DNA of 63,175 nucleotides, counting the filler, from Sphacelaria rigidula (taxonomy: Eukaryota): the NCBI GenBank assembly GCA_964200075.2. It is 11 parts of 11 records of this genome, joined end to end, with 100 filler letters (N's around TTAATTAATTAA, not from the genome) between each part and the next. Parts side by side here need not be neighbours in the genome. Positions count along the whole stretch, not along the records: positions 40,268 to 45,919 come from CAXNAA020025543.1; 10 more parts are not named here. The stretch is one strand, 5' to 3'. The position numbers and the translations under genes were made by a program. Positions 5,754 through 51,300 of this stretch are shown here, one piece after another; the stretch's first letter is position 1, and each line of letters opens with the position of its first letter. Below the pieces are notes generated by a model. It had not been told where the DNA came from, made no database searches, and was given only the letters and a program-made list of their open reading frames with translations.

Positions 5754-8750
5754 AAGCCCTGGCTCCGACGACTCGAAGGTGTTTGAGATCCGGTTCTGTC
5801 CCCTTCAGCATCTTATGAGGCGACTGCATGTCAAGCGCCGAATGCGGTGATCTGTTTGCAAGATAGGCCGCTGTGAACATCAATTCCCCGCAGAGAAAAG
5901 TCGGCAAACCACTGTCAGCAAGCATGCACCGGACCGTGGCTGCAAGCGTCCTTTCTACGCGTTCTGACAGGCTGACTTGTTGTGGTGTATTGGTGCTTGC
6001 AAACTCTAGCAGTATGCCTGTCTGTCGGCAGTACGACTTGAACCCGTTGCCAATGAACTCACCGCCTTTGTCTGCCCTTAGTTGTTCGACCCGAACACCG
6101 CCAGGAATGACCATTGACTGTACGTGGGACTGGAATGCATCAAGAGGGCCGTACTTGGTTTTTTGGAGGTAAATCTCTGTCGATCTGGTATACTCTCATC
6201 GGAGATCTTGCAGACATACTTGAAGGCTCCCAGCGCCTCCGGCATGATCGGTCTAATCGATTATACTTACGCTCCAGAATCTGCCTGGATACAGGGGAGA
6301 TGGATATCAAGATTGGATCATTACATACAGGAAAAGTACGAATAGGAGACTAGCCTGTTATTTGAGGTATACCCGATGTGGCACTTGCAGTACAAATCTA
6401 CTGGGGGCACACGCCTTTTCGCGTGCCGAAAATATGGGATTATGACATGTCATGTTTGTATGAGCGTTTTCCCAAGGAATGACTACCCCACTTCGTTCAG
6501 TGGTTTTTCGGCCAGGTGTGTTTTCAGTGTGTGTGTGTGAGTGGGCAAATATGGGTGAATTAATTACATAAATTATACCTGGTCTCAACTGGCCATGGCA
6601 GACCTACAACTTCCCGCGACAATGCACCCGGTGCATGAGGCTTTCTATTACGGTCCCATCAAATCTGTCATGACTAGTTGAAAAGCGCGTTGCACTTTGT
6701 TGTTGGCTGTCTTCGGGTGGGCCAGTTGATGGCTTTTCCCAACAGCACAAATATCACAGTCCGGAACGGCTCCACCGAAATCCACCTCGTTGATTCCGAC
6801 GTTTTTGAGAAGATTCAAACGATTGCTGTGCGAGTGTCCCATCCTCCAATGCCACAGCGTGGCGGCGTCTGCAGCTTGCATAGCCGGCCCAGATGCGTCG
6901 TTGCCGCTGCTTAGTTCCAGAGAGAAGAAATACAGGTCGCTCTCCAGTTCCTGGAGTGGAACGGTGAAGTTGTTTGTCTCGAGTCTTGGGTTGTTCATTT
7001 CGAAAACTCCATTCCGTGTCGCTTATTTGACGGAGAACAAGTTCCGCCCCAAGCCAGGCACGATCAAACACGAAATCGGAACCAGGCGTTTGACCCCTTC
7101 GCCGTCTTGGATGTGCCCGCGGAGCAGTCCTTCACCAATGCCTGCCAGTTGGTGCCCCCCTGCGGTGGTGATCGTACGCGAGGCCGCCAGTTCTTGGTAG
7201 TTGTGGAGTTTATACCGTAGCCCCGGGATGAGGATATCGTCGAAGTAATGTCCCGACGCACTACTGTCTACCATGACACTGACATGGCTATTGCTACCCT
7301 CAGTCCACTTGTCAAGAGCGGATCCTGCCGCGAGAGCCGTCCCATCATCAACATCGGTGACTCCGTCAAAGGTTTCAGCGGTGTCGTCGAGGTTCGACGT
7401 AGCCCAGGGGTATAATGAGTTCCCGAACATCACCCAGACGTGGTGGACTACGGCTATTACGGCCAGCGCGCGCACTAGTGGGGAAAGTGTATCCCTGATT
7501 CCCCGCAGTAGGTTGCGAGCTCTGCGCCAGAACCCCGGACCCCCGGCCTCCCCTCCGCCGGTCCCTTCGAAGGCGCCGAAGAGGCCGCTGCTGTCAAAAG
7601 AAGCAACGGGTTTATTCGCTGGAGCGAAAGGCCAAAGGTTGTCCGCTTGGAGATGGTTCGCTTTGGGCGCTTCTAGGGCGTTAAAGGAGATGGCGGGAGG
7701 GTGCTCCCCCGTACCGGTGGCTGGTGGATACCTTGACCATTGTGCGAAATTGGCTGTCTGCCGGTTGCGCTGTTGCAAGGAACGGCACTCTTCTTCGCTG
7801 AGGGTTGTTGACCTGTGGAAAGAGCACCACTTGCCTACAATCCCATTGTTTCCACCGTCCTGACCGTCTCCCCCCGTCAGTGCTCGGGTCGCACTTCGGG
7901 TAGGGCAATTTCTCCTAACGTGACCTTGCTTTCCGTAGTGGTGGTATGTTACTTGATTTCTTTTGCTGCCATCATTCCGTCCACTAGCCTGCATAGCAAC
8001 CCCGCGGCCTGCGACCGAGTTGGTGGCGTCCGGTCGTGAAAGGTAGTCAGCTTACATGGTGCTGACCATGTATCTGAGGTCCGACAAATTAAAATCGCGC
8101 CTCTCACAGCTAGCAATACGACCCTATCGTACTCGGCAGGTAAGGCTCGAAGGATAAGGTCCTCATATCGTTCGTCAGGCACGGACTGCCCCATTTCCTC
8201 CAGGCAGTCACGGTAGCCATCCATGAGAAACAAAAAAAATCCGGATCATCCCCTGACTGCATCATCGTAGTGTGGAGTTTATCATGAATTCACTGCGTGC
8301 CTCTTTTGTGTTGCCGTCATATTTTTCTTGCAGCGCTGCCCACGCTGCTTGGCCATTGCCAACCCCGTCCTCCTGGGATTTCCCCATGAAGCGTCTCACG
8401 GTATTATTCGCTGATTTTTCGGTGGTGATAAATAAGATGCTGGACAGGTCATTGTTTGCGCGATTCCAAGCCAGTGAAGGTGCCGTAAAACAGGTTGACG
8501 GTTCATCACCAATTACGATGCGTGCGGGTCTCTGCCACCCCTGCAGAATTTCTGCGGCCGTACTATGGTGGAGGGAGAGGATCACCCGTAGTTTGTCTTG
8601 GTAGTCTCGGAAACTAGCCTTGTCTCTGCCATCAAATTTTGTACACAACTTAAGTACCGCGCGAATACTCTCATTGTCCGCCATGATAATCCTCCTCGTC
8701 GCTTTGCTCCAACGTAACGAGTATAGTATGACGTGTTCCGATACCTCCAC
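5754..8750 (-). mobile_element. Decayed Ty1/copia LTR retrotransposon (gag, Zn knuckle, protease, GAG-pre-integrase, integrase core), cut off by the contig end
   Basis: gag at 8262-8750 and 7949-8233; degenerate knuckle ...GKQGHVRRNC and protease-like VDSSASGHY...LGRNLFSVK in 7023-7994; LWHWRMGH...CDICAVGK...TDLMGP in 6648-6998; integrase RADKGGEF...NTPQQ..LSER...TAAYLANRSP in 5754-6114; multiple frameshifts. Confidence 0.93.
6254..6650. mobile_element. 397-bp insertion in the copia integrase (solo-LTR-like) with a 5-bp TSD
   Basis: CGGTC at 6249-6253 and 6651-6655; termini TAATCGA...TCTATTA; removing the insert and one TSD copy restores DLMGP-IMPEALGAFKYVCKISDE. Confidence 0.8.
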
Positions 8751-23501: not shown

Positions 23502-23864
23502 GTGTGTTGTGTTGTGTATGTTGTCGTCCCATCTATTCTGGACGCCGGTGTACACCTTTCGGTAGATGATGTGGGCGCACCAGCTGGGATCACACAGGAG
23601 GATGGTCAGCATAGGAGTTATTTGTTTTTTTGGGGGGGTCAGTACTCCACCTTCCTCCTGCGGTGGTTGCCTTTGTTTTTTTTATCGCGAAAGGGGTCCA
23701 ACAAATCCTTTCCCCCGTCGACCTTTGGGTCGAATTTGTGTACCCACGACATAGTCGCTCTCCACTGTTGCTAGGCATGGTGTGAGAAAAAATCCCAGAT
23801 CGCTCCGAGATTTGAACCCACGATCCAACCGTCAGGAGATTCCGAGGTTACCTACGGAACCACC
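23502..23864 (-). mobile_element. tRNA-derived SINE family 1 with a (CACAA)n tail
   Basis: B box GGTTCAAATCTC; tail ccagaatagatgggacgacaacatacacaacacaacacac; other copies at 25749-26012, 46153-46754, 48781-49142 and 54275-54351. Confidence 0.85.
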
Positions 23865-34242: not shown

Positions 34243-37200
34243 GGTGTCGTTGGCGTTTCACTTCTGTACAAAAAAAAGTGAGCGTCTAGTCTAGAGAAGG
34301 GTATACTTCCTCACTTTTGCCTTGAACCGGTACATATTTCAATTCTTGTGTACATTTCACGGTTAGGACTAATCATCACGACTCAAAATCACCAAATTCA
34401 CGATTTCTTCGGCCTNNNNNNNNNNNNNNNNNNNNNNNNNNNNNNNNNNNNNNNNNNNNTTAATTAATTAANNNNNNNNNNNNNNNNNNNNNNNNNNNNN
34501 NNNNNNNNNNNNNNNCAACCCCTCGAACTCTAAATTCATAGCCCCCTCCCAAAGGTCAGCATGTGCAGAGGCGCGGGCTTCGGCAATCGTTGTGGGCTCT
34601 GGCTCTTTGGCATGTTCGGCAGGTATCTCGTTCGGCTTCTTCTTCAATGCTCTCTGCTCAGCAATCAGCGCACGCAAGGTTTGGTCCCCGGTGATGGGCC
34701 CAAGCGAAGTTAGCAAACCGATCCCTTCTTGCTGGTTCAGCGCCCGCGTTTGTGCTCGCGTCCTGCCCTCCCTGCATTCTTCATCGTCATGTGGACCCAC
34801 GTTGTACGCCTCGAGCTGTATCAGCGCGTTGCGTGTTTGCACTGGCACATCATTTCCGTCAGGAATGGCGTCGCTACTGTTGCTGGAGGACGATGCAGGT
34901 GTTGATGATGTGCTGCTGCGAGATGATGGTGACGTAGACGCTGATCGGTCGTCGAGAGATGGCGAGGGCGATGTCGATGACGAATCGCCGCTGGATGCTG
35001 ATGCTGATGCTAATGGAGCGTCCAGCGGTAGTGGATATTCCGCCGCCTCCGCTGGTTATTGACTGTCCTCCACCCCCTGGGCCGGTAGCCGCACGTGGGG
35101 AATCCCTCTTCCTGTCAGCGGCCACACTTCTGCCAACTCATTTTTGCAGGGTTCATCCCCCCCTCCCGATTCCGCTGCCGTCAGTGTTTGCGGGGGCGGG
35201 AGAGACTGCGGCGATGCTTCCGACGTGATGTCTCGGGTCTCGACAACTTGCCCTCCCCGCGTTAGCACACGGTAAGAGTCGCGCGGATACTCGCGCGAAG
35301 GCCCGAGATAGAAGCAACTCTGCCCCTTAGGAAGCAGCTTGGATGGCCGCTTCCATCGGCAGTAGGCTGACCTGAGAAAGGGATGTGGACTGGCCGGCAT
35401 AGCCGTCCCGAACCACATTTCGTTCGGTGATTTGTTGTCCGGGTTGGAGGTCGAAGCAGTGTAGTTGAGCTGTTCACATGCCGAATGCATTGCCTCGGCC
35501 CACAGCATTTCGGTCTTCGGCAGCTGAACATGACCGAACAATGTCTTCGCCTGAATCCTTGCCACCATTCCCGTCGCTTCAATGATTCCGAAAGCGCGCT
35601 CTGCAACGCCGTTGAACTGGGGACTATTGGCGGGGGTAAATTCCTGCTTAATCAACAGATTATCACATACTGTTCTGAAATTATCCCCGAAAAACTCTCC
35701 TCCGTTGTCAGATCTTACTATCTGTACTATTGAAGGAAATCCGTCCGCTCGCACATCTGCGAGGAAACGGTTGAAAGCCTGATCAGAATCAGCCTTACGT
35801 TTCAAGAAATACAGCCAGGATTCTCTGCTGGAATCGTCCTTGATGATCATTGGGTAGTGTTTTCCCCCGTACAGATGCAATTTCTTTTCTGCCTCCTAGG
35901 TCTACGAAAACGCTACCGAGCTTGGTTTGAGCTCTATTTTTAGTCTGATGAGGTATACCTTTTCTGTATCCCTTTACCATCGAGCACGCAGTACATGCAT
36001 GCATTTCCCCTTCAAGTGTAGTATCTAAATGTCTAGCAGTATGCCTCAGCAGCTGCTCATGAGCATAACCATAGATACAGGGAAACAGGTTAATATCCAT
36101 CATTTTTACAGGGGAGGGCTCGAGGGCATCATTGCTGGTAATGCGGAAGCATCAAATTGCTCCCCAACTCGATATGCTGTGGCCACCAACATACCGTCCT
36201 GGTTCGCAAACGTTACACGTCCGTTGAATGCAGGCATTATACCATCTGGACCTTCCAACCGGTCCCAACTTTCCCCATCAAATTCCGCACGGGGTGACAA
36301 CAGGTTGTGTCCTAGATTAGGAGCATAAAGTACGTTTTTCAACTCTGCTACATGCTCGTTCTCCTCTGTCATAAACACTACTGTCACATTACCCTTCAGC
36401 GAAACGTCACACGTCACGCCGCCTATGCCACCAACACTAGAAGATACTTGTGTAAGATCTCTCATGTATCGCAATGAATCTGTCAGATGATAGGGAGCAT
36501 CAGTAACACCGTACCACTCTTCACAGAAGGGCCTAGAAACAGCAGCAGCCAACGATTTCAAGCGTGAAAGCTCACCACTGTCTTTCTTCGACTCTGCTTC
36601 GCCTTCCTGATCCGGAGCCCTAATTACGCGAGCTTTGCAGTCCCGTATCCTGTGTGGAAGACCACACCGAAAGCACTCCAGTGGCTTCTTGCCTACGTTT
36701 TCAGCTTTCGCGGAACTACTCCTATCAGTATCAGGTTTTGGCTTCCTAGCTTTACCCTTATTTCCACCCCCCCTGGCTTTCGCAACTAGATCTTGCCCTG
36801 TCGATTTGGCAATTTTGCCCTGAACAGAGAAGCTTAGGTGGGCATTTCGCACGTGGCGTTCTATCGCTTCTCGATCACGCATTACAACGCGGAAAATGAA
36901 TGCTCATAACACTTCTGACCATTTCGTATTCACTCGTTAGTCCACGCAACATGAGGGAACAAACAGTTCTCTCGTCCTTCTCTACCCCTAGCATAAGTAG
37001 AACGCTCAAAACTTCCGCGAGCTGTGAAAAAAATACGTGCGGATCTTCCCCTTGTTGCATCTTCAACCCGTTGAGCTTGTGCTCATAGGGGTTGATATCT
37101 GCGTCGGTAAGGGGCAAAAAGTGATCATTTATTACACGCCACGCTTTACTGGGGGATTTCGCGTTGCTGATCATTGCTCTTACACTTTTGCATGTTATAC

Positions 37201-37554
37201 AATCGTCCAGATGCCACCAAGCAGCCTGTGCTCGCTTGATTTGGCTTACCGTAAAGCCTTGCTCAACCAAGGGTGCTAAACCTATTCCAATACCAGCAAC
37301 TGAAATATCGTCGGTAGTGATGTACGCTTCATGCAATCCACATTGCCTGGCATATATAGAAAGACGCTCTTTCCATTATGGGAATTCAGTCGCAGTCCCA
37401 TCGAATTTCAAACCAGCAGGTAATCGAATACCTCTAATTCCGAAAGACGACACGCCACCTGTGCTTGCATTATCACCACCACCGAAACCCGATCCAAACA
37501 CCTCTACATTTTTCCACCATTCGGCAGTACCTACCGCTGGCGGGCGTGAAAAGT

Positions 37555-40267: not shown

Positions 40268-43200
40268 CTGCTCTCTATTGCTTTGCCACAGGGGCAATTC
40301 TGTCGATCTACTTCCTCCTTTCGACGACCGATGGTGGAAGGGAGGAAGAAGACGACGAGCACGAAGAGTCGTCCTCTGTCAGCAACGGCGACAAATGAGG
40401 GGGCGCCCCAGGTATTTTCAACCTGGCAAACCTGCTAGAGAAGGAGTTGGCAGCCATCGAGCGCCACCTCGGAGACCAACTGTGGGCGACTGGAGAAATC
40501 TGGCACCGGAACCGCGCTCGGAGGTCGTGGTCACTCGAGGTACTGTTGGACACCGGGGCAGATGGGGGCAATTACATGTCTGGGTTTCTGTGGCGTTGCC
40601 TCATAAAAGCAGAAACAGTACAGGCCAAGCTAGACACGAACAACGCTGGCGCTCTTCACGCCGCCGATCCCTCGCAGAGCAAGGTACCTCCGATTTCTAT
40701 AGTTGGATCAGTCGTGATACACCTCTCGTTCGCTCAAGATGATCGCGTTCGTAAAGTGGCAGTCGTGGTGGTAGAGGGCCTACCTTACTGGCTCATTTTG
40801 GGGGCCGAGGGTTTTAGGGCAAATCGCAGCAGTATGAAATTCAAAGCAACAGGAGGGTTTCGCCCTACCCCGTCCGCACCGCGGATTCAGGTTTTGACCA
40901 ATGATAGCCCCCGATATACCGCCGAGTATATACTGTTCGCCCTGGACCCGCTCACGAAAGCCCGTTCGTTAGTCACGCCTTCCCCCGCGCCCTGTGAGTT
41001 CCCCACTTACGGTGACGTTGCTTAGGAAGACGACGGCACGAGGGAGTGGAACAGAGCCTGGCCGAGCGTTCCGTCTCCATCGATGGGTTTGTGAGTATGG
41101 CGGGGGAAACGGTGACTATGGGACCCCAATCACAGGACAGGCAGCTTGTTCTGATTCTGCCCTTGGCTAAATACGATCTGGACGGTGAAGCGTTGGTAGG
41201 GATAGCCAAACGAGTATTGTGATAGGACCAGGATTTCCGGTTTACTGAAAGTTGATAAACCGAGGTAAAGATATGGCCGAAGTGGAAACCTCCGGGACAA
41301 TCGCGCGCATGATACCCCTCAACGTGCGCAATCCCGCTCGCTTTCACTCACTTTTCGACGACACGGCGTCCAAAGTAGACCAACCTACCTTGCCCACACC
41401 CCCTTCGTGCCCAGAAAGTGACCAACTACCCTCAGGACCCCACGAGGTCCGAGTATCGGACGTAAACATGGGACAACTTGGGGAAGCAGAGAAAGTGGAA
41501 CTTGTGCGCCTCATAATGGATTTCGTGGAAGCAGGGTGCCAGCCTGCATCAATCGTACGCTAGAATTGTCATTGATTGACGAGGCTAGCACACCCTTTGC
41601 CGCGAAACAACGCCGTTTCTCGTCGGAAGAACGCCGAATAATGCGACCCTCGACCTTCCCCTGGGCCGTGCAATGTCTTCTTGTCAAAAACAAAGATTGT
41701 ACCTTGCGCTTGTGCATCGACTGGCGTGCTCTGAACAAGTTTTTAGCGCCTGATAGCGGTGGACTGAGTGACATGCAGTCAATATTTGATGGTCTCAGAT
41801 GCAAGAAATATTTCACGCAACTAGACCTAGCCTCAGGATTCCACCAAATTGAGATTGCTGAGAAAGACCGCCACAGAACGGCATTCAGAGATGCAGACGG
41901 CCTATTCTTCGAGTTCACCAGGGCGGGTCTCGGACTGACAATACTCCCGGCGGCGTTCACTCGTGGAGTGAAATCAACGATAGGCAACCTGAGTGGCGTA
42001 CATAGCTAGACATCCTCATAGCCAGCCCCTCGTGGGACGAGCACTTGGCTCTACTTACCATTATCTTGCAACGTATGTCGACTGCAGGATTCTCGGTGAC
42101 CTTCGCCAAGTGCAGCTTTGCAGCACCGTCCCAGGCGTTCCTTGGCATGTTGATCGATAGTACAGGCATACAACTGACCCCGTTCAGACTCACCTCAGTG
42201 GCTAAGATGCCACGTCCACGCACTGTTGAGGAACTACGACGTTTCTCGGACTCACCGGGTACCTCAGACAGTTAGTCGAGAAGTACAGCATAATAGCCGC
42301 CCGTTGACCAACATTCTTCGCCACAAAGAATTTGCCTTACGTCGTGCACGAGAGTTGACCATTCCGTGGGGTGATGACCAGGAAGCAGCGTCCCGGACAC
42401 TCGAGTCTTCTCTCGCACCACCAACGATACTCGCTCTCCCCGACTTTAACAGCACGTTCGAATTGCAGACGAATGCTAGCACAGTGGGTGCGGGAGTCAC
42501 TCTCTTACAGCCAGTGAGGAACGAGTCTCGTTTCATCGCATTTGCGAGTCATAGGTTTTCACGTACAGACTCGCGCCGAGTACACACGGAGAGGGAACGT
42601 ATAGCCGTAATATGGGGGGTCCAGCACTTCAGACCGTACCTAGCGGGAAGGGAGTTTAGATTAGTCAACGACTGTTCCGCGCTGACATAGTTGTTTCGTA
42701 GTCGTGATCTGTATCCCAAGCTACACAGGTGGGCGCTCCGACTCATGGAGTACGACATGGAACTTCGATGGCGTCAGTGAACCCGACACGTGTTACCTGA
42801 CGCTATGTCCCGTCTCCCGCATCAACAGGAACCAGGAGACGATGTAGACGACTCATTTCCCGACGATTTCACCTTTGGCACACCCTCGGAAGCCGCAAGG
42901 TCCCACGGATCACAACTGGACGAGGAATGGTTGTCGGAATTCTCAGCCAATGGTTTCAAGAGAGAGCACATAGATGTAGCTCAGACGAGATATCCAGGCA
43001 CCTCGCGAACACTCTCTTTCACTGAATGCGCGTCAATAATAGACAAACCACCCCGTAGTTCCCCCAGAATTCGCCGGCCATCCGTGCATTCGCAGTTCCC
43101 TGGCTCTGCTCGCATACGTACCGTGCCCACAGATGCTCAGATGAATCTTTAGCCGCCGGTAGCTTTCACGCCTATTGATATTCCAACGATGGAACCTACC

Positions 43201-45771
43201 CCCATCACTCCTGCCCCAATCAGCAAGCGGCTGGAAGTGGAAGAAGTTATCACTGCCGGGGGGGATAGTCCTTTGACTCCAGCGAAAACCGCGGTGGATA
43301 CGTCGGCAGTCCAGAACGCGACACAGGTGTTGACGACCGCACCCGCACTGAAACGTCAACAGGAGGAGCACGCCTTCTTGGGGCAGGTTAGATCGATACT
43401 GGGGGGAGGGAAGGCGCACAGTACGAGTGATAAAGATGGCGAGAGTACGGTAGGTGCCGACGAGGTGCAGGAGGGAGAAGAGGCGCCCGATAGGAGTGAT
43501 TCAAACTGCGAGAGTGTGGTGAGTGCCGACGAGGTGCAATGTGAGGAGGAGGTGCCCAGTACGAAAAATAACGTGAAGAGTAGGGTGAGTGACGACGTTG
43601 CACACAAAAACAGTCTGGACGATCAAGCTGTGGCGGGATTTACGAAAGACATTCAGAAACCGTTGCTAGCCATCCCATCTGCTATGGTACCCGACGTCTT
43701 GGCGTTGATACACACCTTACACGGCCATGCTGGAGTAGGCGCCACGCTGTCTTTGATGCGCGAGCGTTTTTTCTGGCCGTCGATGATCAAGGATACCAGG
43801 CAACACGTGTTACCCTTGCAGCTGTAGGAGGAGAAAGAGGGCTGGTAGCCGCAGGGTTGCAATGACTCCGGGGCGAGCAGTAGACCCATGGGAAGTGTCG
43901 GGGGTGGAGTTGCTGAGCGCAGATCCTGTGCATCACTAACGAAGAATAAATCCATCCTCTTGATCGTAGATCGAGCCTCCAAGTTCCCTTTCGGCTTCCC
44001 ACTCCAGACAAAGCAGGCTGAAAGTGTAGCCCGCATCCTTGCAGACTTATGCTTGACATTCGGCATGCCTCAGAAAATCCGCAGTGGCGGAGGAAATGAA
44101 TTTATAGCCGAGGTGGTGACGTCCCTGTGCAGGTGGTTGAAAGCAGACATTGCTTTCGGACCCTCCGATCCCCCCAGAGGACAAGAAACAGTCGAGAGGT
44201 TGGGGGGATGGCTACTAGACATGCTGGCGGAGCTGTGTAAGTTGTGGCCCCAGAGATGGGACGAGTATGTCTCCCCAGCACTCTGGATTCAGCGTATCTT
44301 GCCTGACGTTTCATTACATGCTCCCGTTCGAGCTCTTGTTCGGTCGTAAACCCCGCACGTCTGTAGATTCGCTTACTCCCCTATATCATAAGGTGGAATC
44401 GAGTAAAGGACTGGTTGCCTTCGTGGAGCAGCGCGGACAGAACCTCAAGGAGGTACGTCTAGCTCTTGAGAAAAGGCACGCCGCGAAGGAATCGACTTGT
44501 TCGAAAATGAACGCCTTTACCATGAGAGCTGCCGCCGGAGTGTCTGCTAGAGAGGAGATCTGGTCATGGTACGCGAATCAGACAGCACGATATATCGGGA
44601 CGGTAACGGTGGGCAACTGCAGCACGAAAGGTATACGAGGCCCTGGAGAGTGAAGGACGTACTGATGACAGGCCTTAGTGTTGAAGCAGTCATGCAAGGT
44701 TGTAAACGTCGTACACGTAGGCTAGCTGTCTCGGAGGTAAAACCCTTTCATGTTCGTCCACCACACCTTAGACCCTGAATAGCTGACGAGTTTGCTCAAC
44801 ACGTATGGGGTACAGATTGGAAGGCCAATACCACTCCTCACCACGCCTTATCAATATCACGAAGTCGTCACCTTCGTGGATCGCCGTGATATCTACTCCA
44901 CGGCAGGCACGAAGCAGTGGGAATACAAGGCGAGAACTCCAGGGGGGAAAGATGTCAGACTGGTTGCCTAAGAGACAGCTTCGAGGCAACTTTTCTTCTT
45001 TGGAACAAGACGCTTTCCACGCACTCTGGCACCTGCACCACCCCGCAGTTGAGCCCAATCCGCCCTAGCACTCGAAGAAGCGCCCCGCTCCTCTGTCGCG
45101 CAGTGATGCCTTGAAGCTTTTCCCCATAGGTGTTACCTTTGGGGAAGACTTCGGAGGTGTTACGGTCAAAGGCCAGGTGTAATACTACGGGAGCCGCTTT
45201 TGGCGAGTACAATACGAAGGCGAAGATTGGGAAGAGCTTTCCCGCCAGGAACTAGAACGCTTAACGAGGATACCGACCTGAGACAGCAGCGGGAACGTTA
45301 TGAAGAGTGGCCATTGTACGAGAAAGTACAGGATATCATTGAGCAGGAAAGGTGGTTGTAAAAGACAACAGCGAATACCTATATATTGGAGTGATGCTGC
45401 GATAGGGTCTGCACTTTTGGGGCCAAAACCTGCCTGATTCAGGGGTTCCTAAAAATAGGAACTGCACAAGAATATGGGTCAGGATATCCCCGTTTGCAAA
45501 TTTATTCGGGATATCCCTAGCAAATTGGGAGAAAAACCCTGGCGTACTCTCACCTGTTTAAAAAGTCGTCTTTTGGATAAGATAAAGGGTTCCTAACAAT
45601 TCTACTTTCAGGCCGTAAAAGTGCTGACCCTATCGCAGCATCACTCATTGCTGGTACCATACATTCAGTGATGAATTGCGAATATCCTGTTTTTGTGGCT
45701 TGCGAGTGTTCCTGTTTCTTCTTCTTTTTCTTTTGGGTGTTTTGGCATTGTCTGGTTCCTATTTTGTAACA
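40268..45771 (+). mobile_element. Decayed Ty3/gypsy LTR retrotransposon: protease, RT, RNase H, integrase, chromo-like and Tudor-like modules, putative 3' LTR 45315-45771
   Basis: LLDTGA (40447-41025); LRLCIDWRALN and LDLASGFHQI...TAF (41536-42009); LQTNAS..GAG and ERERIAVIWGVQHFRPYL (42226-42690); HGHAG...FFWPSM (43189-43827); IVDRASKF, GNEF and ETVER (43888-44349). PR-RT-RH-IN order; many stops and frameshifts. Confidence 0.95.
45389..45646. mobile_element. Sola-like MITE (GAG...CTC, ~30-bp TIR, 4-bp TSD ATTG) inserted in the putative gypsy 3' LTR
   Basis: ATTG at 45385-45388 and 45647-45650; TIR gagtgatgctgcgatagggtc(t/a)gcactttt. Confidence 0.85.
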
Positions 45772-46152
45772 TACAAGCACTCGTATTCCTCTCTTCTCAT
45801 TCTGCCAACTTGGTGATACGTTTTTTTTCCATTTTTAGTGACATACCACACGTCGGACGAGTCATTACTCGTCGAAACAAGTGCACTCGTGGATGATTTT
45901 TGAAAACACAACGAGCATGNNNNNNNNNNNNNNNNNNNNNNNNNNNNNNNNNNNNNNNNNNNNTTAATTAATTAANNNNNNNNNNNNNNNNNNNNNNNNN
46001 NNNNNNNNNNNNNNNNNNNGTGTAGCTGTAAGCACATGGCAGTGATGAGACGACGAAAAATACACACGGAATGAAATATTGGCCAAGTTGAAGCGAATGA
46101 TCAAAGTCACTCTCAATCCGCACCAAACTCTCAATCTCACGAAAACCTTGTT

Positions 46153-46754
46153 ACATGTGAGCGCACCAGCCAGGGTCACACGGGTGGAAGGTCAACACAG
46201 AAGTTTTTTTATCGTTTATAGTACGACACCTTCCTTCTGCGGTGCTTGTTCTTCTTTTTTATATCGCGAGAGGGGTTCAGCAATCCCTTTCCCTCGTCGA
46301 CCGTCAGGTCGAATTTTGTGTACCCACGACATAGTCACTCTCCACTGTCAACAATGTTTTCGTGAGAAAGAGTAGAGCGTTGATTGAGAGTTGGTTAGAT
46401 CATTCGCTTCAACTCGACCAATTTCTCATTCCGTGTGTGCTCTTCTTTGCCTGGAACACTGACGTGTGCTTACAGCTACACATCGATATCCTACTCAGGG
46501 ATATGAAGGGCGTTAGTGGTAAGACACTGCAGAAAACATATCGGACCTCGTGGGGGACATTTCGGAACTGAAACTGTTCATGCCGTAATTGACCGCTTTT
46601 CACTCTTAACTGTGTCCTCTACTCTCAATCTCACGAAAACCCTGTTTGTTGGGCATGTTGTGAGAAAAAATCCCAGATCGCGCCGAGATTTGAACCCACC
46701 ACCCAACCGTCAGAAGGTTTCGAGGTTACCAACTGAGCCACCGGGGCGACCGGC
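46153..46754 (-). mobile_element. SINE family 1, interrupted by a MITE
   Basis: A box TGGCTCAGTTGG, B box GGTTCAAATCTC; body is collinear with 23502-23864 once 46350-46646 is removed. Confidence 0.85.
46350..46646. mobile_element. MITE, AACA...TGTT, 4-bp TSD TGT(C/T)
   Basis: The empty site ccac-tgtt-gggcat is visible in the SINE copy at ~25762-25775 (reverse strand); flanks are TGTC 46346-46349 and TGTT 46647-46650. Confidence 0.85.
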
Positions 46755-49759: not shown

Positions 49760-51300
49760 CATCAAACCCGTCTGTGCCTCGCAAACAAGTTGATCGAGCT
49801 AGGCTTCGTCAAAATATCGGCATGCTGCCATTTTGAATCTACACGCGCGACTCTGATCTCAAATGAAGTGATACTTCATATCGATGTGCTTACTCCTTTC
49901 AAAAGTGAAGGGGTTTTCGGCCAAAGCCTTGACTCCCTCGTTGTCCTCGTACAAGACTATACCGTGGTCCTCCCCACATCCCGACACAGTCTGAGGTCGC
50001 AAAAACGTCAACACTAACTTGACAAATAGTCCCTATTTTTCCCCCTCGGTCATTACGACATACTTCGCCTTCGTGGTTGATGGAGCCACACAGTGTTGTG
50101 TGCGACCCGTTGCCGAAACTACCACACCACCATACATCACAGCTACCCCCGAGATTGAACACCTGTATGGTTCCTCCTTAGCGTAGTTGACGTCATAGTA
50201 AACTGAAATCCTGTCGTGATCTCTCTTGAAAGTGGGTCCAAATTTCTTCGTCCAATTTAGATACTGCATTACCTTTACTACTACTTCCTAGTGCCTCTCG
50301 CACGGGTCATGTGGCTGACAAGCGAGGGCTCGTACTGTATTTGCTACGTCTGGTCTAGTGACTGTAGCCAGCCACATCAGCCCCCCCACTACATTACGGT
50401 ATGAACGATTCACTACTGAATGATGTCTTTGCCCGTTGTCGGTCCCAACTTGAAAGGAACAGAGAGAGGGATTTCTGAGTATCCCCTCACCTCAAAACGC
50501 TTTAGGAGCGTGTCCTTGAACGTAGTTTGCGTCACCGATAGCGTGCCTCTATCCCAATCTCTGTCCACCGCACATCCCATGTACCATGTGACCTCTTCGA
50601 GATTGGTAGTGGGAAACTTGTCAGTCAGAACTTTGACCACCTTTCGCACATTTCCCTCAGCGCCACTGATCAGAATGTCATCCACGTGGACGACAAAAAT
50701 TACACGCACGTCTCCTGCATCCTCCATCTTAAAAACACAAGGGTCAGCCTCACACTGCACCATCCCGACACCCTCCAATAAAGTTTGACACAGAAGACGT
50801 GACCACTGCCTGCCTGTTTGCTTGATCCCATAAATGATTTTTTCGAGCTTAGCGGTCATGTCTGTCAAACCGTAGCAACCTTCAGGCAGCCTCATGTACA
50901 CGTCAGTATCCATCTTCGCATGAACCAAAGCCTGTGTTACGTCGAAATGGTACAACGACCACTCTTCCTGAACTGCCACCGCCATGACCAGCTTAATGGA
51001 GGCCATGGGGGGCGTGGCCGCGAAAGTCTCGAGTTAGTCGACCGCGGAACGTTGTCCGAATCCTCGCGCTACCCGCCTAGCCTTTGCCTTCGTTACGGTA
51101 CCATCCGCGTCGTTTTCCAATTGAAAACCCATTTTGCTGAGAGAACATTCTTCTGGTATTGTACCACTCGGAAATGCTCTAACCTTTTAGTCCCCCAATT
51201 CTGCCTGTATCGCGCCAAGCCATGCCTTGTGGAACTCTGATGTCGCTACGCCATCCATATTGGTGGGTGCTGCCTCTACTTCGCTTACATGCCACCCGAT
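49760..51300 (-). mobile_element. Decayed Ty1/copia RT and RNase H fragment
   Basis: ORF 50413-51006 has HFDVTQA, IYGIKQTGRQW, CEADPCVF and VVHVDDIL; RNase H remnants (APSTTKAKY, and HADILTK near 49800-49825); KARLVARG and FGQ upstream. Confidence 0.9.

Follow-up and report, generated by a model that had tools for sequence, protein, structure and literature searches.

A predicted chromodomain fold ahead of a Tudor module at the integrase C-terminus of a brown-algal Ty3/gypsy family

We analyzed a stretch of 63,175 nucleotides (filler included; hereafter the window) from the Sphacelaria rigidula genome assembly GCA_964200075.2, in which the part taken from CAXNAA020025543.1 carries a decayed pol gene of a Ty3/gypsy retrotransposon. 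The family of this copy encodes two small modules after the integrase, a PTM/DIR17-type Tudor module at the C-terminus and, ahead of it, what structure models suggest to be a highly diverged chromodomain fold. In intact relatives both modules share one open reading frame (ORF) with the integrase, and there they probably bias insertion through chromatin tethering of the integrase (rough probability 0.6, by analogy with known integrase readers). The Tudor fusion on a gypsy lineage is already published, while the cryptic chromodomain ahead of the Tudor is apparently new, as a detail within a known type of system. The locus itself is ordinary, a dead fragment of a repeat family.

Results

Searching with the tail of the window copy, we detected a single match among 128 candidates, P0003, a polyprotein of 1521 amino acids (aa) with reverse transcriptase (RT), RNase H (RH) and integrase (IN), at an E-value (E) of 5.5e-23 and with 45% identity over 130 aa. 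The P0003 tail retrieved 12 proteins, in 11 of which the whole tail lies in one ORF; the twelfth, P0014, stops just before the tail. An integrase search added 21 proteins (P0165-P0185), seven of them with both modules, and these seven include a deeper subclade with an integrase identity of only about 41-49%. P0167 breaks off within the first module, P0166, P0168 and P0169 end ahead of the tail, and the tail modules are absent from all ten outgroup gypsy pols (P0176-P0185). In the intact relatives, which are 1.4-2.0 k aa long, integrase, first module, a Pro/Arg-rich linker and Tudor form one ORF. The original prediction had left it to intact family members to tell whether integrase, chromodomain and Tudor are one ORF, and they are one in every full-length relative with the C-terminus present. 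The named relatives come from three Ectocarpales, Ectocarpus sp. CCAP 1310/34, Nemacystus decipiens and Cladosiphon okamuranus. At the DNA level, a scan of metagenome contigs gave one short locus (L001) with both modules uninterrupted in one frame.

A profile of the 11 tails was searched against 1.84 billion representative sequences and gave 593 representatives at E <= 1e-3, of which 262 reached E <= 1e-10 and 37 reached E <= 1e-30; most of the matches are fragments. Module content was determined for 162 proteins: both modules in 111, the first only in 35, the Tudor only in 15 and neither in one. The P0003 cluster has 57 near-identical members; most of those listed are 1519-1572 aa long and lie on contigs of about 8-10 kb, as would fit a recently active element.

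Past the integrase core, the order in the family is an SH3/GPY-F-like C-terminal domain (CTD), the motif LRHSLADEFAQxAWGxDF, the predicted chromodomain-fold module, the linker and the Tudor. At a mean identity of 0.57 the motif matches the integrase in conservation, and it is helical in the AlphaFold model of the tail, with a lower confidence score (pLDDT) of 57-77. In the relatives the linker is rich in P (18%) and R (14%) and varies between 11 and 30 aa (median 18), and the Tudor ends 13 aa (median) ahead of the stop codon. In an RT tree of 23 rows, built without reference chromoviruses, the window copy falls within the tail-bearing group (support 91/89), nearest to P0009, P0007, P0010 and P0003, and three elements with a Pfam Chromo domain stand outside the tail-bearing clade (91/89).

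Some of the retrieved proteins have unusual architectures of their own. In the RT tree, P0184 (2313 aa), a gypsy pol with a methyl-CpG-binding domain (PF01429), has a long branch and falls close to the Tudor-bearing clade. P0183 (2378 aa), also a gypsy pol, bears two Pfam Chromo stretches that lie not at the C-terminus but between its RNase H and integrase; its long C-terminal extension includes an LDLCAG-type motif, possibly of a methyltransferase. P0134 (974 aa) has a copia-type RVT_2 followed by a strong family-Tudor match (88 bits), without the first module, and is probably a gene model across nested transposons, less probably a copia element with a Tudor of its own.

The second module matches the Pfam family PF21743 (PTM_DIR17_Tudor). 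The window piece, with X at its internal stop, gave an E of 5.2e-6 and 26.6 bits, just under the gathering cut-off of 27.2, which is exceeded by the P0005 tail (29.2 bits); many fragments score lower. All 11 tails of the relatives match at E <= 1 (best E 3.9e-8), and PF21743 also matches 67 of the best 150 of the 593 representatives. The family profile further retrieves cellular proteins that have 3-4 PF21743 domains, and in one such protein a bromodomain is present as well.

The AlphaFold model of the tail has a mean pLDDT of 83, with both modules at about 88-96 and the Tudor at ~95. Residues 118-175 (pLDDT about 91-96) are predicted to form a small barrel of four strands with flanking helices. 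The best Tudor match by structure was SETDB1 (Z 5.8, root-mean-square deviation (rmsd) 1.9, 49 aa). The Arabidopsis RDM15 Tudor (Z 5.1) has 23% identity to the Tudor model, and BAHCC1, Spindlin1, KDM4, PHF1/MTF2 and PHF20 are further neighbours, mostly histone methyl-lysine Tudors. Among the 50 rows listed for the tail model, those covering residues 109-175 are Tudors or other SH3-like barrels. The SH3-like barrel fold of the Tudor module holds in the model, and the Z scores (below 8) support this fold, not a ligand. Aromatic residues are frequent at Y/F37 (88%), Y41 (85%), W42 (97%), Y46 (88%) and W51 (90%), with D48 in 88%; these are sequence columns, not geometry.

The first module was judged to have a chromodomain fold, too diverged for sequence models, from a module-only AlphaFold model and a structural search with it. 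The model (55-row alignment, a member of the deeper subclade as target) has a pLDDT of 91.3 and a predicted template-modelling score (pTM) of 0.75, and in the tail model the same module has a pLDDT of 88-93. A long beta hairpin (E9-20, E23-33) is followed by a third, short strand and, at the C-terminus, by a helix (H54-68), giving the three-stranded antiparallel sheet with C-terminal helix of the chromodomain fold. In the VIA-align search of 48,161 PDB representatives, rows 1-38 of the best 50 were chromodomain or chromoshadow chains with near-full coverage (Z 6.7-3.5), and unrelated chains start at Z 3.5. This status follows from the entry title for 33 of the 38 rows, and the other five (ZMET2, eEF3, New1 and two GEN1 entries) we take to be chromo/chromoshadow proteins. 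The top matches were Oxpecker (Z 6.7, rmsd 2.5, 59/61) and SUV39H1 (Z 6.4), followed by Chp1 (Z 6.2, rmsd 1.9, 53/55) and HP1 (Z 6.0, rmsd 1.9, 51/53). In the whole-tail search, 10 of the 50 rows listed cover residues 22-101, and all are chromodomain proteins, nine by title and the tenth, eEF3, presumably. The high-probability Foldseek rows for the module model were the CHD6 and CHD4 chromodomains. Among 106 family modules, aromatic residues occupy W22 (96%), Y24 (92%), W36 (85%), Y5 (65%) and Y28 (57%). The three candidate cage positions are aromatic in 65%, 92% and 57%, with a register taken from the sequence pattern and strand positions, not from superposition; in the window copy they read V, Y, T.

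Several results weigh against a chromodomain here, or against a chromodomain that reads marks. Pfam Chromo (PF00385) matched 0/12 window pieces, 0/11 tails and 0/30 fragments, even at E <= 5, and is not among the 25 families listed for the best 150 representatives. PDB sequence-profile searches returned no chromodomain, giving only WD-repeat noise at E >= 2, whereas in the control the genuine chromodomain of the gypsy element P0179 found 79 PDB chromodomain sequences (best E 5e-13). The hhalign comparison of the 106 family modules with three genuine retroelement chromodomains scored 13.7, a value reached by 9 of 100 column shuffles; despite this non-significant score the motifs align in the expected register. 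Foldseek against PDB gave nothing at E <= 0.001 with both models; against BFVD, the module model likewise had no match at E <= 0.001, the rows being unnamed phage proteins. All structural Z scores are below 8, where the tool warns of a mere common arrangement, and some of the good structural matches are chromoshadow domains, which dimerise instead of reading marks. The subclade of the window copy has no aromatic residue at the first (V/L/D) or the third (T/S/R) putative cage position.

The two domain assignments of the original prediction fared differently. The PTM/DIR17-type Tudor was confirmed by PF21743 in the window piece and in all the relatives' tails and by the Tudor fold of the AlphaFold model. 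The chromodomain-like pattern is supported at the level of the modelled fold, with only chromo/chromoshadow chains at the top of the structural search, and not by Pfam, PDB profiles or hhalign. A duplicated pair, i.e., a tandem Tudor, was ruled out by the modules not aligning with each other in hhalign and differing in fold.

Conservation was calculated as mean pairwise identity among 13 full-length members. The chromodomain-fold module (0.49) and the Tudor (0.52) are close to RT (0.55) and RNase H (0.55), with the integrase core at 0.63, the linker at 0.22 and the RH-IN spacer at 0.30. By this sequence measure the constraint on both modules is about equal to that on RT and RNase H, unlike that on the linker.

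In the window, the copy consists of the following parts.

40447..45281, + strand: decayed Ty3/gypsy pol with protease region, RT, RNase H, integrase, chromodomain-fold module (predicted) and Tudor (tblastn and Pfam)
41686..42149, + strand: reverse transcriptase RVT_1 in two ORFs (Pfam PF00078, E 4.4e-6 and 5.5e-5)
42367..42687, + strand: RNase H (Pfam PF17919, E 2.8e-24; PF17917, E 2.2e-19)
43672..43809, + strand: integrase zinc-binding H2C2 domain (Pfam PF17921, E 1.5e-10)
43948..44157, + strand: integrase catalytic core, rve (Pfam PF00665, E 4.5e-6, 27.3 bits, under the 32.6 cut-off)
44551..44775, + strand: integrase C-terminal SH3/GPY-F-like region, ending ...VKPFHVRPPHLRP (ORF translation aligned with relatives)
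44776..44778, + strand: in-frame TGA stop, a sense codon in relatives (LRHS...) (translation)
44779..44823, + strand: conserved motif IADEFAQHVWGTDWK joining the integrase CTD and the chromodomain-fold module (translation)
44864..45041, + strand: predicted chromodomain-fold module, frameshifted at or next to the G run 44942-44947 (family hidden Markov model (HMM), two frames)
45042..45089, + strand: Pro-rich linker with in-frame TAG 45066-45068 (translation)
45090..45281, + strand: PTM/DIR17-type Tudor module (45090-45260) and pol end, TGA 45279-45281 (Pfam PF21743, family HMM)

The tblastn matches of the intact relatives P0003/P0005/P0013 cover 40447-45281 in frames 1,3,2,1,3,2,1,3, so the window pol has at least seven frameshifts. 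The Pfam domains follow each other on the + strand as RVT_1, RT_RNaseH(_2), Integrase_H2C2 and rve, and P0003 is ordered alike; this is the RT - RNase H - integrase order of Ty3/gypsy elements. The window RT is 69% identical to that of P0003 over 171 aa. The rve domain of P0003 scores 33.6 bits, above the cut-off, versus the lower score of the decayed copy, and the SH3/GPY-F-like region of P0090 and P0125 has an SH3_Tf2-1 match in Pfam, below cut-off. The flanking long terminal repeats (LTRs) that characterize Metaviridae were not found for this copy, a fragment in a partly N-masked window: no flanking direct repeat was detected around 40.4-45.3 kb. A very high-copy repeat begins about 80 nt past the pol stop codon, so the 3' end of the element is probably interrupted or truncated there. 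The window pol is a dead copy, unable to make protein, and a domesticated host gene is ruled out by the frameshifts together with several stops.

Both tail peptides that the original prediction had read from this decayed end were reproduced at the same positions by the sequence and its translations. The N-half of the first module, VVTFVDRRDIYSTAGTKQWEYKARTPGG, is in the frame of the ORF 44783-44971, and the C-half, KMSDWLPKRQLRGNFSSLEQDAFHALWHLHH (KMSDWLPKRQL...FHALWHLHH), in the frame of 44787-45068, with the switch at or beside the G run. The Tudor-like peptide shares the frame of the C-half and has an internal TAA (45180-45182) ahead of the terminal TGA. A frameshift and a stop had been described, and both are present. 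Three more breaks had been overlooked, namely the linker TAG, the TGA at the CTD end and a frameshift between about 44823 and 44864; the last ~500 nt of pol contain two frameshifts and three in-frame stops. Family HMMs, i.e., profiles made from the relatives of the window tail, scored 27.3 bits on the N-half, 36.7 on the C-half and 68.0 on the full-length Tudor.

The pieces 44799-45047 and 45097-45412 were recovered in contigs of three public runs (X1, X3, X4), with no difference to the window in X1 and 1-2 differences in the matching pieces of X3 and X4. The public runs include an 'algae metagenome', and one run may be the source sample of the window. Given this recovery from three runs, neither the frameshift nor the TAA is an artefact peculiar to this assembly. 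At 45066/45067, the first two letters of the TAG stop in the window, most of the depth in the three runs is C,C, so most other copies lack the linker stop. This majority, with many contigs 90-95% alike, shows that the same genome has many other family copies, some of them possibly intact. Run X6, RNA by guess only, gave three low-depth pieces (44496-44631 and 44960-45110), which have no bearing on expression.

Discussion

The nearest known system is Gypsy-10_Ec32 of Ectocarpus, a Ty3/gypsy Pol ending in a Tudor, which according to the accessible part of the report was called the first Tudor-bearing transposon and has a homologue in Tribonema minus (PMC12477816, Genome Biol 2025). The window family shares with it the Tudor-ended brown-algal gypsy Pol. 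Three proteins named from Ectocarpus (P0004, P0014, P0171) are members of the family of the window tail. Since the relatives of the tail include proteins of Ectocarpus sp. CCAP 1310/34, the window element very probably belongs to the Gypsy-10_Ec32 lineage, a link that by sequence runs through these relatives and not through the consensus itself. The same source, in the portion available, describes four gypsy lineages in Ectocarpus, three with putative C-terminal chromodomains, and places them outside the chromoviruses (PMC12477816). The available text credits the Gypsy-10_Ec32 lineage with the Tudor alone and does not mention a chromodomain on it, and the figures of that paper may show more (PMC12477816). 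In the window family, by contrast, every intact member has the predicted chromodomain-fold module ahead of its Tudor. Full-text literature searches turned up no further paper describing an integrase with a Tudor or with chromo plus Tudor. The idea that a second reader on an LTR integrase is unusual therefore has to be narrowed: with the Tudor on a gypsy lineage in print since 2025, it is the chromodomain before the Tudor that is apparently new, as far as the accessible text goes (PMC12477816).

Stramenopile LTR elements with independent chromodomain captures are also known, from the parts of the literature at hand: Chronos in oomycetes, CoDi in diatoms and ECR-1 in Ectocarpus (PMC5348765, PMC11541908). 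These elements and the chromoviruses, as described there, resemble the window family in having a chromodomain fold after the integrase CTD and a presumed chromatin-directed integration. Their chromodomains are recognised by Pfam (e.g., P0179, 60.7 bits), unlike that of the window family, and the window family has the Tudor as an extra reader. Cellular PTM/DIR17-type Tudor proteins, such as P0154 from the diatom Corethron pennatum, have the same Tudor family and are retrieved by the element's profile at E about 1e-16; they differ in carrying 3-4 Tudors, in one case (Corethron pennatum) with a bromodomain, and no retroelement domains. A cellular homologue of the chromodomain-fold module was not detected in the best 150 of the 593 profile matches.

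Tandem methyl-reader barrels are the best structural neighbours of the tail, i.e., the SETDB1 triple Tudor, the CHD1 double chromodomain, Spindlin and the BAHCC1 tandem Tudor. Those readers combine one type of module, whereas the window family pairs a predicted chromodomain with a Tudor through a flexible, poorly conserved linker (pLDDT about 59), so that the model has no fixed two-domain unit. Integration is also steered via histone-mark reading in retroviruses, by LEDGF/p75 with its PWWP domain for HIV integrase and by BET proteins for MLV integrase. The HIV and MLV integrases bind a reader supplied by the host, whereas in the window family the readers lie within the integrase polypeptide.

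For the intact relatives, we propose that the tail modules would tether the integrase-cDNA complex to nucleosomes with particular methyl marks, and that new copies would consequently be biased in their insertion sites, as with the chromovirus chromodomain. None of the outcomes that would have spoken against the original prediction occurred, i.e., neither a lack of Tudor or chromodomain matches nor a Tudor that is absent or out of frame in intact copies. Integrase chromodomains are held to target integration (PMC11541908, PMC5348765, citing Gao et al. 2008, in the sections available), and the Tudor of Gypsy-10_Ec32 was likewise interpreted as targeting (PMC12477816, available text). As to the ligand, the available parts of two studies report brown algae without 5-methylcytosine (5mC) or H3K27me3 and with little or no H3K9me, and tie H3K79me2 and H4K20me3 to repression and repeats (PMC12477816, PMC13076208). 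Because of these absences, our best guess is a lineage-typical mark, H4K20me or H3K79me2, or otherwise H3K36me/H3K4me, with low odds for any single one. Against targeting by mark reading stands the reported complete or near-complete absence from brown algae of H3K9me and H3K27me3, to which chromodomains classically bind (same portions of PMC12477816 and PMC13076208). The window copy itself, moreover, makes no protein.

A more specific form of this proposal is a bivalent reader, which we regard as possible, though on the doubtful side. The ancestor would have had an ordinary integrase chromodomain like other brown-algal gypsy lineages, a cellular PTM/DIR17 Tudor would have been captured later, and the chromodomain would then have diverged past sequence recognition. 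The two modules would read marks in combination, e.g., H4K20me with H3K79me2 or H3K36me, in stramenopiles without H3K9/H3K27 methylation and 5mC. If true, this would be the first transposon with a two-reader integration code.

Alternatively, only the Tudor would read chromatin, and the chromodomain-fold module, having lost mark binding, would be a chromoshadow-like dimerisation or docking module or an intasome spacer. We consider this rather unlikely. Chromoshadow domains are among its good matches (Chp2, Z 5.3, and HP1alpha, Z 4.9; Swi6 and Rhino in Foldseek), the module is not recognised as a chromodomain by any sequence model, and at two of the three putative cage positions an aromatic residue occurs in just 65% and 57% of the 106 modules and is missing in the window's subclade. 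However, the structural search is headed by four chromodomains that bind marks, and the structures of three of these contain H3K9me3 or a trimethyl-lysine H3 peptide; moreover, all three putative cage positions are aromatic in most family members. The first module is as conserved as the catalytic domains, which fits any function and so is not decisive.

A role outside targeting is improbable in our estimate. The tail would then bind methylated non-histone proteins (e.g., RNA-silencing or Sm-type proteins with methyl-arginine) or nucleic acid, and would in this way help in assembling particles, in nuclear import or in escaping small-RNA silencing. The Tudor neighbours do include the methyl-arginine readers SMN and TDRD3 and nucleic-acid-binding SH3-like barrels (KOW, CarD, the UvrD/PcrA Tudor), and brown-algal transposons were reported, in the text available, to be associated with small RNAs (PMC12477816). 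The closest Tudor matches, however, are histone methyl-lysine readers (SETDB1, BAHCC1, Spindlin1, KDM4, PHF1/MTF2, RDM15), PF21743 is also found beside a bromodomain in a cellular protein, and the modules lie at the integrase C-terminus, the site of known LTR-element targeting domains. Finally, that both peptides are chance patterns in decayed non-coding DNA or an assembly artefact, as the frameshifted, stop-bearing tail region outside any long ORF could suggest, is hardly credible against family HMM scores of 27-68 bits, a Pfam E of 5e-6, 593 representatives at E <= 1e-3 and the same sequence in three runs.

Integrase-fused readers are the clearest natural cases of transposons choosing insertion sites by chromatin state. 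The ligand of the chromodomain-Tudor pair would indicate marks of 'safe' or repeat-rich chromatin in brown algae and would be informative because these algae are reported without the usual heterochromatin marks; the pair would also serve as a compact natural tool to detect or target such marks. A conserved chromodomain eluded Pfam, profile searches and, judging from the available text on the published family, apparently also InterProScan/HHpred-based curation, and transposon reader domains may therefore be under-counted.

Other features of the window

Elsewhere the window is a patchwork of pieces from other transposons. On the - strand we detected an RVT_1 reverse transcriptase (436-1452), a copia gag_pre-integrase piece (6651-7022), a copia element with rve, Pol_BBD and gag (35059-37375) and a copia RVT_2 (50416-51033). 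No chromodomain was detected in the 141 other window ORFs, only transposon fragments, and Rfam and ARAGORN gave no family and no tRNA in the window.

Beyond the pol stop codon, extreme-copy repeats at 45362-45645 and 45859-45900 have a summed contig depth of 1e5-8e5, compared with about 70-90 for single-copy pieces in run X1. A 97-nt repeat, 88% identical between 23768-23864 and 46646-46742, has a look of a short interspersed element (SINE). Paired blocks of 44 N with 12 bases between them recur every 5752 bases (e.g., 40168-40211/40224-40267 and 45920-45963/45976-46019), and these regular blocks are masks rather than assembly gaps.

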